Shown one piece after another: positions 39,177 to 43,322 of a DNA stretch of 64,000 bases; the first letter of the stretch is position 1; every line of letters starts with the position of its first letter. Source of the stretch: Syntrophales bacterium. GTDB lineage: Bacteria > Desulfobacterota > Syntrophia > Syntrophales > PHBD01. The notes beneath the pieces are model-generated. The model saw nothing but the letters and a program-made list of their open reading frames with translations, was not told where the DNA came from and made no database searches. The position numbers were made by a program, and so were the translations under genes. The stretch is taken from the NCBI GenBank assembly GCA_963668175.1, contig OY764159.1, positions 4,480,001-4,544,000 of the forward strand. Reading direction: 5' to 3'.

Positions 39177-39590
39177 GTGATTATTTACGAATTGCGCTGC
39201 AAAAACAAGCATCAGTTTGAGGGCTGGTTTCAAGACCGGAACGCCTTTGAGGAACAAAAATCGAAAAATCTCATCCTTTGCCCGGTGTGCGGTGATGCCG
39301 GAGTGGAGATTGTTCTGTCGTCGCTGACCGTCATGGGTAAGGATACACCCTCCTATGAGAAGTCCCCCAAAGGGATGTCGCCTGTCCAAACCTTGAATGC
39401 GCTGCATGACTTCATCAACAGGAATTTTGAGGATGTCGGTGACAAATTTGCCGATGTTGCCCTGAAAATACATCGCGGTGAGGAAGAACAGCGGAATATT
39501 AAAGGCACAACGACAAGGAACGAAGAAGAAGCGCTCGTTGAAGAGGGCATTCACTTCATTAAAATTCCCATCACCAAATTTAACAGCTGA
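39177..39590 (+). CDS. DUF1178 family Zn-ribbon protein
   Basis: MIIYELRCKNKHQFEGWF...CPVCG...FEDVGDKFADVALKIHRGE...IKG...LVEEGI. Confidence 0.88.
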   Translation: MIIYELRCKNKHQFEGWFQDRNAFEEQKSKNLILCPVCGDAGVEIVLSSLTVMGKDTPSYEKSPKGMSPVQTLNALHDFINRNFEDVGDKFADVALKIHRGEEEQRNIKGTTTRNEEEALVEEGIHFIKIPITKFNS

Positions 39591-39603
39591 AACCACTCTC
39601 ACC

Positions 39604-41916
39604 ATGCAAGATTTCTTTACGGACATCACCAAAACCATTGGGAACTCGCCTCTTGTCGAAATCAAACGCCTAAATCAGAATAATAATGTAAAAATATTCG
39701 CGAAATTGGAGAGTTTCAACCCGGGAGGATCGATTAAAGACCGTGTTGCTTTCGCCATGATTGAAGGTGCGGAACGTCGCGGCGAACTGACCCGGGACAA
39801 AATCATCCTCGAAGCGACCAGCGGCAATACGGGGATCGGTTTGGCCTTTATCGCGGCAGCGAAGGGTTACAGGTTATGCCTGGCCATGTCGGAGGCTGCA
39901 AGCGAAGAGAGAAAGAAAATCCTGAAAGCCATGGGAGCGGAACTGCTTTTCACGCCGGCGAATCTCGGCACCGACGGCGCCATCGAGACGGTCTACAAAA
40001 TGCTCCGGGAACATCCGGATAAATATTACGGCACGGACCAGTTCAATAACGAAGACAACGTCCTGGCGCATTATCACGGTACGGGCGAGGAAATCTGGCG
40101 ACAGACGGGCGGCGCCGTGACGATGGTCGTCGCCACCCTTGGAACGACAGGAACGGCAATGGGCGTCTCAATGCGCCTCAAGGAGTACAATCCGGCCATT
40201 CGCATTATCGGCGTCGAGCCGTACCTGCAGCACAAGATCCAGGGGCTCAAGAACATGAAGGAATCTTACCGGCCGGGAATCTTCGACAAGAGCCGCCTCG
40301 ATGAAAAGATCAACATCCTCGATGAAGACGCCTTCGAGATGGCCAGGCGCCTGGCCCGGGAAGAGGGACTCCTGGTGGGGATGAGTTCAGGCGCAGCCAT
40401 GCACGTCGCGATTGAGAAGGCCAAAACCATGAGCGAAGGATTGGTGGTCGTCATCCTCCCGGACAGCGGCGAAAGATATCTAAGCACGGAGCTCTTCACG
40501 GATAAACAGGAAACGACGCTCCGGGTCTTCAATACGCTGACGAAAGAAAAAATGTTTTTCAAACCGATCAGCCCTGAGACCGTATTGATGCATTCGTGCG
40601 GACCCACCGTTCATGAGGTTCCGCATATCGGAAGTTACCGCCGTTTTGTCGTGTCCGATATGATCCAGCGGTATCTTGAATACAAGGGATACCAAGTGAA
40701 GCATGTCATGAATATCATCGATCTCGCCGACCGCGCCATCCGCGGCGCGGAGCGAGCCAACATGGAGATGGCGGCCTATTCGGAAAAATGCACTGCATCC
40801 TTCATGAACGGCATCGATAAACTGAACATCAAGCACGAAGAACCTTATCCCAAGGCGAGCGAGAATGTCGACGCCATGGTCCGTCTCACGGAGCGGCTGA
40901 TCGACAAAGGCTATGCCTATGAAAAACTGAGGTCCGTTTATTTCGATATCTCCAAACTAGATGATTACGGCGTATTGTCGAACATCGACCTCAAGAAAGT
41001 TAAACCGGGCAAGACCATCGACCAGGACGATTATGCCAAGGACAGTCCCGTCGATTTCACCCTCCTTAAAAGATCCACCCTGCAGGAACTGAAGAAGGGT
41101 GTTTATTTCACGACCCCGTGGGGGAGCGTCCGGCCCAGCTGGCATCTGGAATGTGCGGCTATCTCACTGAAATACCTCAATGAATCGTTCGACATTCATG
41201 CCAGCGGTTCCGACATCATTTTCCCCCATTGTGAAAATGTCATGGCAATCGGAAAAGCTGCGACAGGGAAGCAGATGGCCAATTACTGGCTCAACACGGA
41301 GCTCCTGATGATCGAGGGGAAGAAGATGTCGCGATCCCTGAACAACACCCTGACGATCGAGGAACTGGAAGCAAAGGGATACGCCGGCCGGGAGATCAGA
41401 TTTTTTCTTCTCAGCGCCCATTACCGAAAACCGCTGAATTTTTCCTTCGGAGCCCTGGCCTCGGCCAAGAACACCGTGACGAGACTCGATCGGTTCATCC
41501 AAAGGCTGATGTATTTCACCCCCGGCAGCGGTCATCCCGATACGGAACAGCTCATTTATGACCTCAAGCAGGGTTTTGCCCAGGCCATGGATGACGATTT
41601 CAACATGTCGGGGGCCTTGGCGTCGATTTTCGAATTCGTCAAGAAGGTGAATCTTCCGCTCTCCCAAGGCCAATTGACGGAAAAAGAGAGGGACCGCATC
41701 CTGGAGACGATGACCTCGATCGATAAGGTCCTTGGTGTTATGAACTTTGAAAAACAGATCATCGACAGCGCGACGCTGAAGCTCATCGAAGAGCGGGAAG
41801 CCTTGAGAAAGGACGGCCGCTGGGATGAGTCGGACGCCATCAGGAGAAAACTGGCAGAGATGGGGGTGGAGATTTCCGATACCCCGGAGGGCATGTTCTG
41901 GAGGTTGAAATCATGA
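39604..41916 (+). CDS. Cysteine synthase (PLP, CysK/CysM-like) fused to a cysteinyl-tRNA synthetase-like domain
   Basis: One 770-aa frame: KLESFNPGGSIKDR, EATSGNTG, PDSGERYLST, then from about 40513 VFNTLT...CGPTV...HIGS...RPSWHLEC...FPHCEN...KMSRS...AMDDDFN...SDAIRRKL. Confidence 0.92.
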   Translation: MQDFFTDITKTIGNSPLVEIKRLNQNNNVKIFAKLESFNPGGSIKDRVAFAMIEGAERRGELTRDKIILEATSGNTGIGLAFIAAAKGYRLCLAMSEAASEERKKILKAMGAELLFTPANLGTDGAIETVYKMLREHPDKYYGTDQFNNEDNVLAHYHGTGEEIWRQTGGAVTMVVATLGTTGTAMGVSMRLKEYNPAIRIIGVEPYLQHKIQGLKNMKESYRPGIFDKSRLDEKINILDEDAFEMARRLAREEGLLVGMSSGAAMHVAIEKAKTMSEGLVVVILPDSGERYLSTELFTDKQETTLRVFNTLTKEKMFFKPISPETVLMHSCGPTVHEVPHIGSYRRFVVSDMIQRYLEYKGYQVKHVMNIIDLADRAIRGAERANMEMAAYSEKCTASFMNGIDKLNIKHEEPYPKASENVDAMVRLTERLIDKGYAYEKLRSVYFDISKLDDYGVLSNIDLKKVKPGKTIDQDDYAKDSPVDFTLLKRSTLQELKKGVYFTTPWGSVRPSWHLECAAISLKYLNESFDIHASGSDIIFPHCENVMAIGKAATGKQMANYWLNTELLMIEGKKMSRSLNNTLTIEELEAKGYAGREIRFFLLSAHYRKPLNFSFGALASAKNTVTRLDRFIQRLMYFTPGSGHPDTEQLIYDLKQGFAQAMDDDFNMSGALASIFEFVKKVNLPLSQGQLTEKERDRILETMTSIDKVLGVMNFEKQIIDSATLKLIEEREALRKDGRWDESDAIRRKLAEMGVEISDTPEGMFWRLKS

Positions 41917-42740
41917 ATGGCGAGACAAGAAGATCGATCATTGCAGGTTCATGGTACCCCGGCAATCCCGATGTCTTGCGCGAAGACATTGAAGAGTATT
42001 TAAAAGAGGCATCATCAGGAGACATACAGGGCGAGATATTGGGCGTCGTAGCGCCCCACGCAGGCTACGTCTATTCAGGAGGCGTGGCCGCCTATGCCTA
42101 TAAACCCATCCGGGGCAAGCGATACGACACGGTCATCGTCATCAGCCCGTCGCACCGCATGGCCTTTCCGGGAGCCTCCATATACCGCCGGGGAGGCTAT
42201 GAGACGCCTTTGGGCATCGTACCCGTTGATGCGGAGATGTCGGACTTCCTTATCAATAACAGCACGATCATCAGCGATGCACCTGCGGCGCACATTCAGG
42301 AACATGCCCTCGAAATACAGCTGCCTTTCCTGCAGACCGTTCTCGGTCCATTCCTCCTTGTACCCATCATTATGGGCAGCCAGGATAGAAGGACCTGCGA
42401 ATCGCTTGCCAAATCGATAACGGAGGCCGCCGGCGATCAGCAGGTCTTGATCGTGGGCAGTTCCGACTTATCACACTTCCACGATTACCGCAGGGCGGTC
42501 AGTATCGATCAGACGGTGTTGCAGCATCTCGATAAGATGGATGCCGTCGGACTTCTGAACGATCTCAAGACGGGCCGCGGCGAGGCATGCGGCGGAGGAC
42601 CCGCCGCCGTCACCATGATGGCGGCAGGCATGCGGGGAGCGACCGAAGCGAAAGTGCTTAAATACGCGAATTCCGGCGATGTTACGGGGGACAGGGACCG
42701 GGTTGTCGGCTACGCCGCCGCCGTATTCTGGAAACCATAA
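41913..42740 (+). CDS. amrB: AmmeMemoRadiSam system protein B (MEMO1 family)
   Basis: AGSWYP, PHAGYVYSG, SPSH, EHALEIQLPFL, SSDLSHF, ACGGGP, YANSGDV, VVGYAA. ATGA overlap with the upstream fusion. Confidence 0.93.
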   Translation: MNGETRRSIIAGSWYPGNPDVLREDIEEYLKEASSGDIQGEILGVVAPHAGYVYSGGVAAYAYKPIRGKRYDTVIVISPSHRMAFPGASIYRRGGYETPLGIVPVDAEMSDFLINNSTIISDAPAAHIQEHALEIQLPFLQTVLGPFLLVPIIMGSQDRRTCESLAKSITEAAGDQQVLIVGSSDLSHFHDYRRAVSIDQTVLQHLDKMDAVGLLNDLKTGRGEACGGGPAAVTMMAAGMRGATEAKVLKYANSGDVTGDRDRVVGYAAAVFWKP

Positions 42741-42770
42741 AGCACAGTCTCAGGACAGATTGGGGGGCCT

Positions 42771-43322
42771 GTGAATCTGACGGAAAGCGAAAAAGAGCAT
42801 CTGCTCAACATAGCCAAAACCGCAGTGAAGACGCGGCTGGCCGGGAACGATACGCGGGAGAAGAAAACACCCGACATGCCCGTTTTGAAAGAAAAACGGG
42901 GGGCATTCGTCACCTTAAAGAAAAGAGGGCAGTTGCGCGGCTGCATCGGTTACATCCAGGCCGTTAAGCCCCTCGGACAAACCATAGATGAAATGGCCCA
43001 GGCGGCCGCATTCGGCGATCCGAGATTCCCGCCTGTGACGAAGGAGGAATTGCCCCTCCTGTCATTCGAGATTTCCGTCTTGACGCCGCTTAAGGAAATA
43101 GAAAATGTGGACGAAATCGAGGTAGGCGTCCACGGGATATATATCGTCAAGGGATTCCACTCCGGCCTGCTCCTTCCCCAAGTCGCAACGGAATACGGAT
43201 GGGACCGGAAGACCTTTCTCGAACATACCTGCTATAAGGCGGGACTTTCCCCCCGGGCGTGGCAGGATAAGGACGCAAAGATTTACATCTTTTCCGCGGA
43301 TATATTTTGTGATTCCGTATAG
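42771..43322 (+). CDS. amrA: AmmeMemoRadiSam system protein A (AMMECR1 family)
   Basis: GAFVTL...LRGCIG, AAAFGDPRF, EISVLTP, GLLLPQVA, KAGL. Confidence 0.94.
   Translation: MNLTESEKEHLLNIAKTAVKTRLAGNDTREKKTPDMPVLKEKRGAFVTLKKRGQLRGCIGYIQAVKPLGQTIDEMAQAAAFGDPRFPPVTKEELPLLSFEISVLTPLKEIENVDEIEVGVHGIYIVKGFHSGLLLPQVATEYGWDRKTFLEHTCYKAGLSPRAWQDKDAKIYIFSADIFCDSV

Follow-up and report, generated by a model that had tools for sequence, protein, structure and literature searches.

A putative tRNA-linked cysteine synthase: a CysM-type enzyme fused to a remodelled cysteinyl-tRNA synthetase-like module in a Syntrophales bacterium

The window, that is, the whole stretch of 64,000 nucleotides analysed here (contig OY764159.1 of assembly GCA_963668175.1), carries a gene in which a PLP cysteine synthase is joined to a protein resembling cysteinyl-tRNA synthetase (CysRS). 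A single open frame extended over 39478..41916 (+), and translation from the ATG at 39604 gave a protein of 770 residues with its stop codon at 41914-41916. The homologues start at the position equivalent to this ATG. The features of the locus were as follows.

39177..39590, + strand: DUF1178 gene, the upstream neighbour, ending 13 nt ahead of the fusion ATG (context)
39604..41916, + strand: whole fusion gene (P0001), 770 amino acids plus stop, full-length in relatives
39604..40500, + strand: CysM-type PLP cysteine synthase half, residues 1-299 (PALP, TIGR01136 and 2bhs match)
about 40501..40518, + strand: linker, residues 300-305 (TDKQET), its length differing by a few residues across the family
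40519..41469, + strand: CysRS-like catalytic part, Rossmann plus CP (Pfam, TIGR00435 and alignment to E. coli 1li5)
41575..41904, + strand: DALR_2 plus CysS_C anticodon-binding part (Pfam and alignment to E. coli 1li5)
41913..42740, + strand: AmmeMemoRadiSam system protein B, with an ATGA overlap with the fusion stop (context)
42771..43322, + strand: AmmeMemoRadiSam system protein A (downstream context)

According to Pfam, PALP covered residues 8-287 of the fusion (3e-69) and tRNA-synt_1e covered residues 319-622 (1e-87), followed at the C-terminus by DALR_2 (658-713) and CysS_C (726-767). The full CysRS-like half comprised residues 306-770, a C-terminal module of 465 residues. The original prediction had described an uninterrupted frame that joined a PLP cysteine synthase to a full-length CysRS-like protein through a very short linker near 40495-40515, and both points were borne out by the 770-residue frame with its Pfam and NCBIfam domains and by the linker of about six residues. 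The junction sequence at the linker was inspected and contained neither a homopolymer nor any other feature suggestive of a frameshift. The fused frame recurred in 49 of the order's 61 genomes (full-length in 45 and truncated by contig ends in four), and 122 of the 301 genomes in the phylum sample had a match at E ≤ 1e-110, related genomes in these counts not being independent samples. Among the phylum matches listed, nearly all covered both halves. Hence, an assembly artefact, which had been named as a possible refutation, was excluded by the clean junction and by the same fused frame across genomes of the order and the phylum, and the fusion is an old one. Members of the family were also found in Planctomycetota and in DPANN and CPR relatives.

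Database annotations of the fusion were limited to the names 'cysteine--tRNA ligase' and 'cysteine synthase', and no description or characterisation of a cysteine synthase–CysRS fusion was found in the literature searched (subscription journals and supplements lay outside the search). The earlier statement that such fusions are annotated but have no known biochemistry agreed with this result. The DUF1178 and AmmeMemoRadiSam synteny around the fusion was kept within the order only; elsewhere the fusion was flanked by housekeeping genes of unrelated kinds, including tmk (3 of 10 loci), nth, ykuD, murJ and adk. A functional tie to the AmmeMemoRadiSam or DUF1178 genes was rejected because of this loss of synteny.

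The PLP half matched the NCBIfam cysKM family TIGR01136 over residues 8-298 with 364.5 bits (cut-off 344.15), and its score against the CysM equivalog TIGR01138 was 363.5 bits, which was below the cut-off of 394.2. The best match among solved structures was E. coli CysM (PDB 2bhs, 257 bits). The PLP lysine was K45 (nucleotides 39736-39738), the TSGNTG loop occupied residues 72-77, and the GTTGT loop and SSGAA were also present. The PLP lysine, (T/S)SGNTG, GT(T/S)GT and S(S/A)GAA were conserved in all 30 family genes of the motif survey, which held 31 rows for 30 genes (L031 and L049 were one gene), 17 of them from the order and 13 from outside it. All the PLP and substrate-loop motifs were shared with the CysM or O-phosphoserine sulfhydrylase type (2BHS), from which the fusion differed in its score below the equivalog cut-off, its long CysRS-like tail and its gene neighbours. 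Sulfur-carrier genes (CysO/ThiS, JAMM) were found neither near the fusion nor beside six unfused relatives (for L057, the ORF selection lacked the PALP gene itself), and a sulfur-carrier route for the PLP half was rejected on this ground.

The distribution of CysE was then of importance for the function of this half. According to a hand cross-tabulation, the fusion was the sole cysKM match in 28 of the 49 fusion genomes of the order. A CysE-like gene occurred in 1 of these 28 fusion-only genomes, compared with 18 of the 21 genomes having both the fusion and cysK and 10 of the 12 without the fusion. Outside the order, the fusion was the sole cysteine synthase match and CysE was absent in three of five complete genomes. 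One of these three genomes was G170, in which the synthetase site of the fusion was dead. The window's own genome possessed a separate cysK at C1:888001 and a CysE-like gene at C1:892873; therefore, the fusion is not its only cysteine synthase. The motifs and genomic setting of the PLP half suggest that it is functional as a cysteine synthase and independent of CysE. In most fusion-only genomes this apparent independence would resemble that of the M. tuberculosis CysM, which reportedly works without CysE (Agren et al. 2008, as cited in PMC11361707). As judged by the absence of CysE, the substrate would probably be O-phosphoserine or another non-acetylated serine ester, used with sulfide.

The CysRS-like half reached 399.5 bits against the NCBIfam cysS model TIGR00435 over residues 306-767 (cut-off 340) and aligned to E. 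coli CysRS over residues 306-769 (283 bits). The score above the cut-off, together with the very short linker, favours a bifunctional enzyme with channeling, in which cysteine from the PLP half would be activated at the variant site of the CysRS half and loaded onto tRNA-Cys, the fusion acting as a second CysRS for cysteine made de novo. We consider this reading unlikely, and the first point against it was that a better cysS always coexisted. A search for a second, canonical cysS had been proposed, and one was found in the window's genome, where the stand-alone gene scored 555 bits versus 401 bits for the fusion. The separate cysS likewise outscored the fusion in 10 of the 10 complete fusion genomes, two of whose fusions fell below the TIGR00435 cut-off. 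The second point was the rate of divergence. The CysRS-like half diverged more than the stand-alone CysRS of the same genomes in 15 of 15 genome pairs, with pairwise identities of 32-50% (82% in one close pair) against 46-56% (89%) for the stand-alone enzyme. Compared with the PLP half, at 56-69% (93% in the close pair), the CysRS-like half was far more diverged. On these sequence comparisons, the CysRS-like half is probably not the housekeeping CysRS of the window's clade. A total of 50 tRNAs were detected with ARAGORN in the window's genome, including a single tRNA-Cys(GCA) and one tRNA-Sec, and the idea of a dedicated second tRNA-Cys for the fusion was rejected because only one tRNA-Cys gene was present.

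The catalytic motifs of the window's protein were HIGS at residues 341-344 (nucleotides 40624-40635), followed by R346-R347, and KMSRS at residues 574-578 (nucleotides 41323-41337). The Zn/Cys pocket of the E. coli enzyme consists of C28, C209, H234 and E238, together with T68 and W205. In the window's protein, C332 corresponds to C28, I372 to T68, and W513, H514 and C517 to W205, H206 and C209, whereas the segment H542-C543-E-N-V546 spans the positions of H234, H235 and E238. The full pocket was not found, given the changes T68I, H235C and E238V. These changes were order-wide: T68 was replaced by I or V in 17 of 17 genes, E238 by V, I or L in 17 of 17, and H235 by C in 16 of 17. Outside the order, the Cys/Zn pocket was canonical although the ATP loop was dead. 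The second lysine of KMSKS was conserved in none of the 30 fusions; KMSRS was present in 21, and the loop was unrecognisable in the other nine, all of which belonged to the 13 genes sampled beyond the order. The KMSKS loop was likewise missing from five of six further named Desulfobacterota fusions. The loss of this lysine and loop, and the lack of the Zn ligand E238 and of T68 in the order, also speak against the bifunctional reading. The fourth histidine of HIGH was absent from all 30 fusions, yet HIGN occurred in 36 of 46 rows of KMSKS-type CysRS. Its absence was dropped as a sign of decay, and the presence of HIGN- and HIGS-type motifs in apparently normal CysRS is in favour of charging.

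The bifunctional reading is further supported by the residues that were retained in the window's version. Relative to canonical CysRS (E. coli CysS; 1LI5/1U0B), the domain order (Rossmann plus CP, DALR_2, anticodon domain) was shared, as were C28, H37 (the first histidine of HIGH), W205, H206, C209, H234 and K266, along with the anticodon residues described below, and K269R is a conservative change. The fusion was unlike the canonical enzyme in the attached PLP enzyme, the better cysS beside it, KMSRS, the RR pair after HIGx, the three pocket changes, the faster divergence and the catalytic death of many family members. The window's version could still aminoacylate, since it exceeded the TIGR00435 cut-off, kept the key residues and had only the conservative lysine-to-arginine change. 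The Syntrophales-type version (HIGS, KMSRS), which is the least degenerate, may retain residual aminoacylation. Charging cannot, however, be the conserved function of the whole family because of the redundant cysS, the lost motifs and the faster divergence.

In one relative, a Nanobdellota genome, cysM was fused to a cysS with canonical motifs, which was the sole cysS match of that genome. Adjacent genes, with cysM immediately ahead of a cysS that was again the sole cysS match, were found in Woesearchaeota, Moranbacteria, Bathyarchaeia and Bdellovibrionales, and the Nanoarchaeota protein P0248 was collinear with the window's protein over 768 residues at 45% identity. The fused and adjacent units had the same gene order and the same junction as the window. 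Their CysRS kept HIGN, T68, HHxNE and KMSKS, whereas the window's clade was of the remodelled RR type and had a second cysS. In a quick tree of 72 rows (58 of 150 listed representatives plus our own sequences, with the fragments P0244, P0252, P0264, P0276 and P0277 excluded), the RR-type rows were split from all 46 KMSKS-type rows by a branch with an SH-aLRT value of 98. The existence of these units agrees with real charging by such an architecture, and it backs a putative functional link of cysteine synthesis with tRNA-Cys. The family probably originated from a truly bifunctional cysM-cysS unit of the kind still present in relatives from DPANN and CPR. Desulfobacterota possess a bacterial-type cysS as well, and in them the ancestral bifunctional unit would have become a binding or regulatory module. 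The original prediction that new cysteine is channelled to the synthetase site was thus supported in its tie between cysteine synthesis and tRNA-Cys, but delivery to a charging site was disfavoured for the window's clade by the better cysS, the lost KMSKS lysine and the altered pocket.

The anticodon-binding region behaved differently from the catalytic site. The anticodon contacts of E. coli CysRS include Arg427, Trp432, Asp436 and Arg439, according to the available portion of PMC13449415. R731, R735, W740, D744, R747 and D759 of the window's protein are equivalent to R423, R427, W432, D436, R439 and D451 of E. coli. The equivalents of R423, D436, R439 and D451 were present in 30 of 30 fusions, and that of R427 in 29 of 30 (one K); the same conservation was seen in the further named Desulfobacterota fusions. 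These residues remained intact in L041, L050 and L051 despite the loss of HIGH, KMSKS and/or Zn ligands.

The invariance of the residues for tRNA-Cys recognition could also be expected if cysteine were made on the tRNA, with the CysRS-like half holding Sep- or Ser-tRNA-Cys and the PLP half converting the bound precursor to cysteine. The many genomes in which the fusion was the sole cysteine synthase match and CysE was missing are in line with such a route. The earlier suggestion of this kind, in which the PLP domain acts on a tRNA-bound precursor in the manner of SepRS/SepCysS, was nevertheless not supported by the results: SepRS (TIGR00470) was above the cut-off in none of five genomes, the window's own genome included, and the PLP half belongs to fold-type-II CysK/M. 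SepCysS has a PLP fold other than that of fold-type-II CysK/M. Moreover, the invariant carboxylate-binding (T/S)SGNTG loop of the PLP half would point to a free amino-acid substrate, no loader is known that would place the precursor onto tRNA-Cys where the site is dead, and only a single tRNA-Cys gene was found. A precedent does exist, since methanogens are described in the available text of PMC5424206 as making cysteine only on tRNA. The likeness to SepRS/SepCysS, as far as that text describes it, lies in phosphoserine-type cysteine synthesis linked to tRNA-Cys in organisms without CysE/CysK; the fusion differs in having no SepRS, a CysK/M-family PLP half and a CysRS-like class I half for tRNA binding. 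Tandem action on the tRNA was therefore regarded as a very remote prospect.

The conserved anticodon residues also bear against the view that the CysRS-like half is a relic, kept only to help the cysteine synthase to fold, stay soluble or oligomerise, with no tRNA or cysteine role. In favour of this view, the catalytic motifs decayed differently between lineages, the divergence was quick, and the identity of the anticodon-binding region between fusions was only 24-42%. When the halves were folded as separate chains, the predicted interface scored 0.35 and the best control 0.00, which was a weak pass. The mark was attained by 116 of the 157 solved complexes and by 2 of the 215 mismatches used for comparison (counts that hold only approximately, since our own alignment was used). 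Among these passing cases, scores of 0.60 or less were seen for only 18 of the 157 solved complexes and for both mismatches. The interface runs agreed in at least 90% of the contacts, and the pLDDT of the partner was at least 88. The weak interface is compatible with a structural partner, and it lent slight support to the tethered-synthase reading set out below as well. However, the anticodon-contacting residues were conserved in the 30 genes amid diverging surroundings, and the full length was retained over phylum-level divergence. Unfused CysM-like relatives of the PLP half exist in some lineages; hence, the PLP half can exist without the domain. Furthermore, of the 142 columns invariant in six canonical CysRS, 36 were lost in the fusions, and many of the lost columns carried a new conserved residue, such as S347R and S504T (31 of 31 rows each). 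New invariant residues in place of canonical ones indicate neo-functionalisation of the CysRS-like half and not simple decay. The relic view was judged improbable.

The remodelled pocket raises the alternative of a new specificity, in which T68I, H235C and E238V would accommodate another thiol, or cysteine would be ligated to a non-tRNA acceptor as by MshC. The order-wide nature of the pocket changes agrees with this idea, as do the new positive charges near the site (S347R, E573K/R, S609K and E596R/K). MshC is itself a precedent, being described as a CysRS paralogue in the available parts of PMC9437257 and PMC2922099. The fusion, however, scored only 183 bits against the MshC model TIGR03447 (cut-off 485.1), and the genes outside the order combined a canonical pocket with a dead ATP loop. 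The ligand suggested by the invariant anticodon residues is tRNA-Cys rather than a small acceptor, and no biosynthetic neighbours of the fusion were found in the loci outside the order. A new specificity was consequently rated as highly improbable. The conservation of the altered pocket (I/V, C and V/I/L) throughout the order agrees with selection for ligand binding. An active catalyst would require such binding as well, which weighs against the reading that we place first.

The reading that we place first, with a confidence somewhat short of even, is that of a cysteine synthase in no need of CysE, tethered to a pseudo-synthetase or weak synthetase that would bind tRNA-Cys, with a coupling of the HisZ or GCN2 kind. 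The PLP half would condense an O-phosphoserine-type ester with sulfide to give cysteine, for which CysE would not be needed. The CysRS-derived module would no longer be the cysteinyl-tRNA synthetase of the cell; its ligand would be tRNA-Cys, joined by cysteine in those members whose Zn pocket is preserved. The bound tRNA-Cys or cysteine may then couple the cysteine synthase activity to the demand for tRNA-Cys or to its charging state, and the fused module would stand in for the feedback node provided elsewhere by CysE. Allosteric control of the PLP half by tRNA or cysteine is purely conjectural and is drawn by analogy. GCN2 has a HisRS-like domain. HisZ, in the available text of PMC9437257, has no adenylation activity and mediates the inhibition of HisG by histidine. 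The fusion matches the HisZ-like pattern in that the CysRS paralogue, with its damaged catalytic motifs, is fused to the cognate biosynthetic enzyme. In both systems, the enzyme that makes an amino acid is physically linked with a paralogue of the matching synthetase that lacks, or in the fusion would lack, normal adenylation capacity. The fusion is unlike HisZ–HisG in being class I rather than class II, fused rather than a separate subunit, complete in its anticodon domain, and regulatory by inference only. A bolder form of the tethered-synthase reading, which we hold to be doubtful, is a tRNA-gated cysteine synthase derived from a bifunctional ancestor, in which the fused pseudo-synthetase would read the tRNA-Cys anticodon and switch the main synthase of CysE-less anaerobes. 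Cysteine output would in that case track tRNA-Cys charging, and the protein would be a bacterial equivalent, in one polypeptide, of the HisZ and GCN2 arrangement.

The fusion is a widespread combination of textbook families with inconsistent annotation, and it is uncharacterised as far as the literature searched shows. If the tethered-synthase reading is true, annotations as 'cysteine--tRNA ligase' would need correction, the protein being mainly a cysteine synthase, and the making and control of cysteine in CysE-less syntrophs and sulfate reducers would be explained. The family also forms a natural series. At one end, the cysM-cysS units contain a sole, presumably active CysRS; the remodelled KMSRS type lies in between; and at the other end, the site is fully dead but the anticodon readers persist. 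Such a series is suited to the study of the conversion of a synthetase into a module for binding. The only CysRS paralogues named in the available portion of a 2022 review were CysRS* and MshC (PMC9437257), so that the fusion would, if the reading holds, represent a third functional class. It resembles both in being a divergent CysRS copy beside a normal cysS. CysRS* has no anticodon domain and MshC is tRNA-independent, whereas the fusion keeps the anticodon domain and carries the PLP enzyme. The window's genome also contains a third CysRS-like gene, and it is this gene, not the fusion, that resembles the description of CysRS*.

The gene under study occupied an open frame at window positions 39478–41916 on the plus strand. 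Counted from the ATG at 39604, to which the starts of its homologues were equivalent, the product had 770 residues with the following Pfam domains:

Residues 8–287, plus strand: PALP domain of the PLP half (3e-69)
Residues 319–622, plus strand: class-I CysRS catalytic domain (1e-87)
Residues 658–713, plus strand: DALR_2 domain
Residues 726–767, plus strand: CysRS C-terminal anticodon domain

Both halves exceeded the curated NCBIfam cut-offs, with 364.5 bits for the PLP half against cysKM TIGR01136 (cut-off 344.15) and 399.5 bits for the CysRS-like half against cysS TIGR00435 (cut-off 340). The junction (…LFTDKQETTLRVFNTL…) was about 6 residues long, and no homopolymer run was found in the junction DNA. 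The original prediction of one frame joining the two halves through a very short linker was confirmed on all points. The fusion was neither an artefact nor rare. Among 61 sampled genomes of Syntrophales, it was full-length in 45, cut by contig ends in 4 and absent from 12; among 301 genomes of Desulfobacterota, matches at E ≤ 1e-110 were found in 122, and nearly all of those listed covered both halves with 43–78% identity. An assembly artefact, which had been considered beforehand, was ruled out by this occurrence in 49 of 61 and 122 of 301 genomes. Two interrupted copies were also observed: the halves at G339:C15:206488-208765 lay in adjacent frames meeting at residue 343 (a split gene or a frameshift), and the match at G057:C7:173009-175030 contained an in-frame TGA and ended at residue 679.

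The 770-aa form was represented by more than 120 clusters at no less than 69% identity, with the source name 'cysteine--tRNA ligase' and entries from Syntrophus aciditrophicus, S. gentianae and Syntrophales MAGs. A distant member showed complete identity to an entry under the name Desulfarculus baarsii DSM 2075, which is called 'cysteine synthase' by NCBI but 'Cysteine--tRNA ligase' by UniRef; among the relatives of this member were entries for Desulfocarbo, Thermoguttaceae, Ca. Anammoximicrobium and CSSED10-310. In full-text searches of the openly accessible literature, a cysteine synthase–CysRS fusion was nowhere mentioned. In the accessible text of a 2022 review of synthetase paralogues, only CysRS* and MshC were listed for CysRS, and the word 'fusion' was absent (PMC9437257). 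The earlier statement that such fusions are annotated but not known to be characterised agreed with both the public annotation and the literature search. The fusion is an uncharacterised family made of parts of known types, and its function is likely to differ from its database name.

The CysRS-like half was not the housekeeping CysRS. In the genome of the window (one contig, 4.57 Mb), a stand-alone cysS scored 555 bits against TIGR00435 and the fusion 401 bits; a C-terminally truncated third CysRS-like gene (286 bits) and a stand-alone cysK (452 bits) were also present, and tRNA-Cys(GCA) was encoded by a single gene. The second, canonical cysS that the original prediction had thought worth seeking was thus present here and in all 10 complete single-contig fusion-bearing genomes, where the separate cysS outscored the fusion (432–602 versus 277–457 bits); the fusion fell under the TIGR00435 cut-off in two of them. 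The third CysRS-like gene encoded 417 aa at G000:C1:3596790-3598001 (1462–2715 counted within locus L003), outside the window, next to genes for a MATE-type transporter and a lipoprotein. The lack of an anticodon domain in its product fits the description of CysRS* in the accessible part of the review (PMC9437257). A SelC*-like tRNA was not found in this genome, which had one tRNA-Sec and one tRNA-Cys. Another genome carried, alongside its intact cysS and the fusion, an extra cysS-like copy that was split into two parts and contained TGA and TAG codons in frame (G007:C1:1072239-1073541).

The fusion protein was aligned to E. coli CysRS (PDB 1li5), which gives the numbering of the pocket and anticodon residues named below, and motifs were compared among 31 fusion frames and 6 canonical CysRS of Desulfobacterota. 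Two loci (L031 and L049) represented one gene, so the 31 rows corresponded to 30 genes. All 30 kept the Schiff-base Lys (S-x-K-D-R) of the PLP half and its (T/S)SGNTG, GT(T/S)GT and S(S/A)GAA motifs. The second Lys of KMSKS was found in none of the 30. The loop read KMSRS in 21 genes, including all 17 from Syntrophales, and was unrecognisable in the remaining nine, all of them among the 13 genes that do not belong to Syntrophales (degenerate forms included KISQA, KLSSE/D, KISEK, KKANRV, KKMDEN, SLGEEN and RKLARE); five more such cases occurred among six further named Desulfobacterota fusions. The pocket residues C28 (28/30), W205 (28/30), C209 (29/30) and H234 (29/30) were mostly kept, and the Zn ligand E238 was retained in only 8/30. 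The pocket of the Syntrophales fusions carried conserved changes: T68 to I/V (17/17), H235 to C (16/17) and E238 to V/I/L (17/17). T68 and the four Zn ligands were taken to have the roles known from structural work on the E. coli enzyme. The six canonical CysRS had 142 invariant columns, of which 58 persisted in 90% or more of the fusions and 36 were lost. Many lost columns carried a different residue that was itself conserved (S347R and S504T in 31/31 rows, D444S in 30, G509V in 29 and R471T in 28). Hence, the redundant CysRS-like half has been remodelled, evidently under selection, and has not simply decayed. A bifunctional enzyme, in which this half also charges tRNA-Cys, appears rather unlikely; the Syntrophales-type version of the window is the least degenerate of the family, so residual charging is possible there.

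The residues that read the anticodon outlasted the catalytic ones. Equivalents of R423, D436, R439 and D451 were present in 30/30 fusion genes and R427 in 29/30 (one Lys), even where HIGH, KMSKS and/or the Zn ligands were gone (L041, L050 and L051), and the same residues were kept in the six further named fusions. In the accessible text on the E. coli enzyme (PDB 1U0B), the anticodon contacts are Arg427, Trp432, Asp436 and Arg439, with Arg427 hydrogen-bonded to G34 (PMC13449415). The anticodon-binding region overall was the fastest-evolving part of the fusion (24–42% identity). In six genomes (15 pairs, one of them close), identity was 56–69% for the PLP half (close pair 93%), 32–50% for the CysRS-like half (82%) and 46–56% for stand-alone CysRS (89%); the CysRS-like half was more diverged than stand-alone CysRS in 15/15 pairs. 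With these residues retained within a fast-evolving region and catalytic ones lost, selection seems to favour tRNA-Cys reading over the chemistry of adenylation.

The PLP half looks like a working cysteine synthase. The fusion, cysKM-family matches (E ≤ 1e-30) and CysE-like genes (TIGR01172, E ≤ 1e-35; the curated cut-off was reached in only 12 of the 61 Syntrophales genomes) were cross-tabulated by hand. The fusion was the sole cysKM-family match in 28 of 49 fusion-bearing genomes of the order. A CysE-like gene was detected in 1 of these 28 (G012, 86% complete). Of the 21 genomes with a stand-alone cysK/M besides the fusion, 18 had such a gene, as did 10 of the 12 fusion-free genomes, all counts being of related genomes and not of independent samples. 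The CysE-like gene and the stand-alone cysK often shared a contig, and no CysE above the cut-off was found in five high-quality fusion-only genomes. Among five complete genomes outside the order, three (G099, G164 and G170) had the fusion as sole cysKM match and no CysE-like gene, and in the other two cysK immediately adjoined a CysE-like gene; the synthetase site of the G170 fusion was thoroughly dead. In many genomes, then, no candidate cysteine synthase other than the fusion is present, and there the fusion would be independent of O-acetylserine from CysE. A putative O-phosphoserine-type, CysE-independent reaction would be shared with M. tuberculosis CysM, which Agren and colleagues reportedly described in 2008 as an O-phosphoserine-type cysteine synthase. 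No CysO/ThiS-type carrier was found in the neighbourhood of the fusion or of its unfused relatives. Counter to the sole-synthase pattern, the genome of the window had both cysK and a CysE-like gene. In the region around them (G000:C1:886501-894876; L009 and L052), cysK lay between O-acetylhomoserine sulfhydrylase-like and homoserine O-acetyltransferase-like genes, named by eye from translations, and the CysE-like gene 4 kb downstream scored 169.7 bits against a cut-off of 210. The region resembles a separate cluster for sulfur amino acids, one absent from many relatives.

The suggested analogy to SepRS/SepCysS, with tRNA-dependent cysteine synthesis by the PLP half, is unlikely: SepRS was found in none of the 5 genomes searched, the tRNA-Cys gene of the window's genome was single and ordinary, and the PLP half retained an invariant loop that would bind the carboxylate of free amino acids. 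The best explanation, held tentatively and at a little less than an even chance, is a cysteine synthase tied to a CysRS-derived module that binds tRNA-Cys. The conserved role of the module in this clade would be tRNA-Cys binding, with cysteine binding as well where the pocket survives, and cysteine synthesis would be coupled to tRNA-Cys. CysE is the usual feedback point, and such a module would fill an evident gap in organisms without it. The HisRS-like domain of GCN2 is one precedent for a synthetase-derived module. The closest in logic, a synthetase paralogue tied to a biosynthetic enzyme, is HisZ; according to the accessible text of the review, this HisRS paralogue has no adenylation activity and renders HisG histidine-sensitive (PMC9437257). 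When the two halves were folded as separate chains, the score was 0.35 (best control 0.00), which weakly suggests a defined interface; the runs agreed in at least 90% of contacts, with partner pLDDT of at least 88. Of 157 solved complexes, 116 reached the mark, but only 18 did so at 0.60 or under; of 215 mismatches, 2 reached it, both at 0.60 or under. These counts hold only roughly because the alignment was our own.

The fourth His of HIGH was found in 0/30 fusion genes. Its loss was rejected as a sign of decay because HIGN is common in KMSKS-type CysRS. An exhaustive representative search with the CysRS-like half gave 20,840 proteins at E ≤ 0.001; the best 58 of 150 listed included many unfused CysRS that had HIGN although their Zn ligands and KMSKS were intact. 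HIGN also occurred in 36 of the 46 KMSKS-type rows of the tree set, so the missing His is a trait of the clade from which the fusion arose. The signatures of the family are instead Arg-Arg after HIGx (RR-type), an altered KMSKS loop and replaced conserved columns. In a quick ML tree (72 rows after 5 fragments were dropped), 46 KMSKS-type and 24 RR-type rows were split by a branch with SH-aLRT 98. Unfused RR-type proteins exist, for example P0250 (468 aa, representing a cluster of 58). P0248 from a Nanoarchaeota MAG was fused at the same junction; it was collinear over 768 residues with the protein of the window (45% identity) and carried HIGN, T68, HHQNE and KMSKS; in a small Nanobdellota MAG from a species-genome collection (L061), a P0248-like fusion was the sole cysS-family match. 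In Woesearchaeota, Moranbacteria (two loci), Bathyarchaeia and Bdellovibrionales (two loci), cysS was immediately preceded on its own strand by a cysM-like gene, at a distance of 3 to about 600 nt, and the paired cysS was the sole match in the four small MAGs searched. Hence, the pairing is apparently older and wider than the Desulfobacterota fusion, and by its motifs it can involve a fully canonical synthetase. The predicted link between cysteine synthesis and CysRS was thus partly supported: the pairing recurs with canonical, sole cysS in other lineages, but the CysRS-like half of the window is redundant and remodelled. The recurrent pairing in DPANN, CPR, Bathyarchaeia and Bdellovibrionales (L061, L063, L065–L068 and L072) may merit its own study.

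The gene order pilC, DUF1178, fusion, AmmeMemoRadiSam B and AmmeMemoRadiSam A was found throughout Syntrophales. The adjacency of the B and A genes was kept within the order only; the same synteny was not found outside it, where the neighbours were unrelated housekeeping genes. The arrangement was read as inherited gene order and not as a functional system. The DUF1178 gene ended 13 nt before the fusion ATG, with no obvious Shine-Dalgarno sequence in between (39591–39603), and translation of the fusion may be coupled to it. On the 3' side, AmmeMemoRadiSam system B and A occupied window positions 41913–43322, with an ATGA stop/start overlap at 41913.
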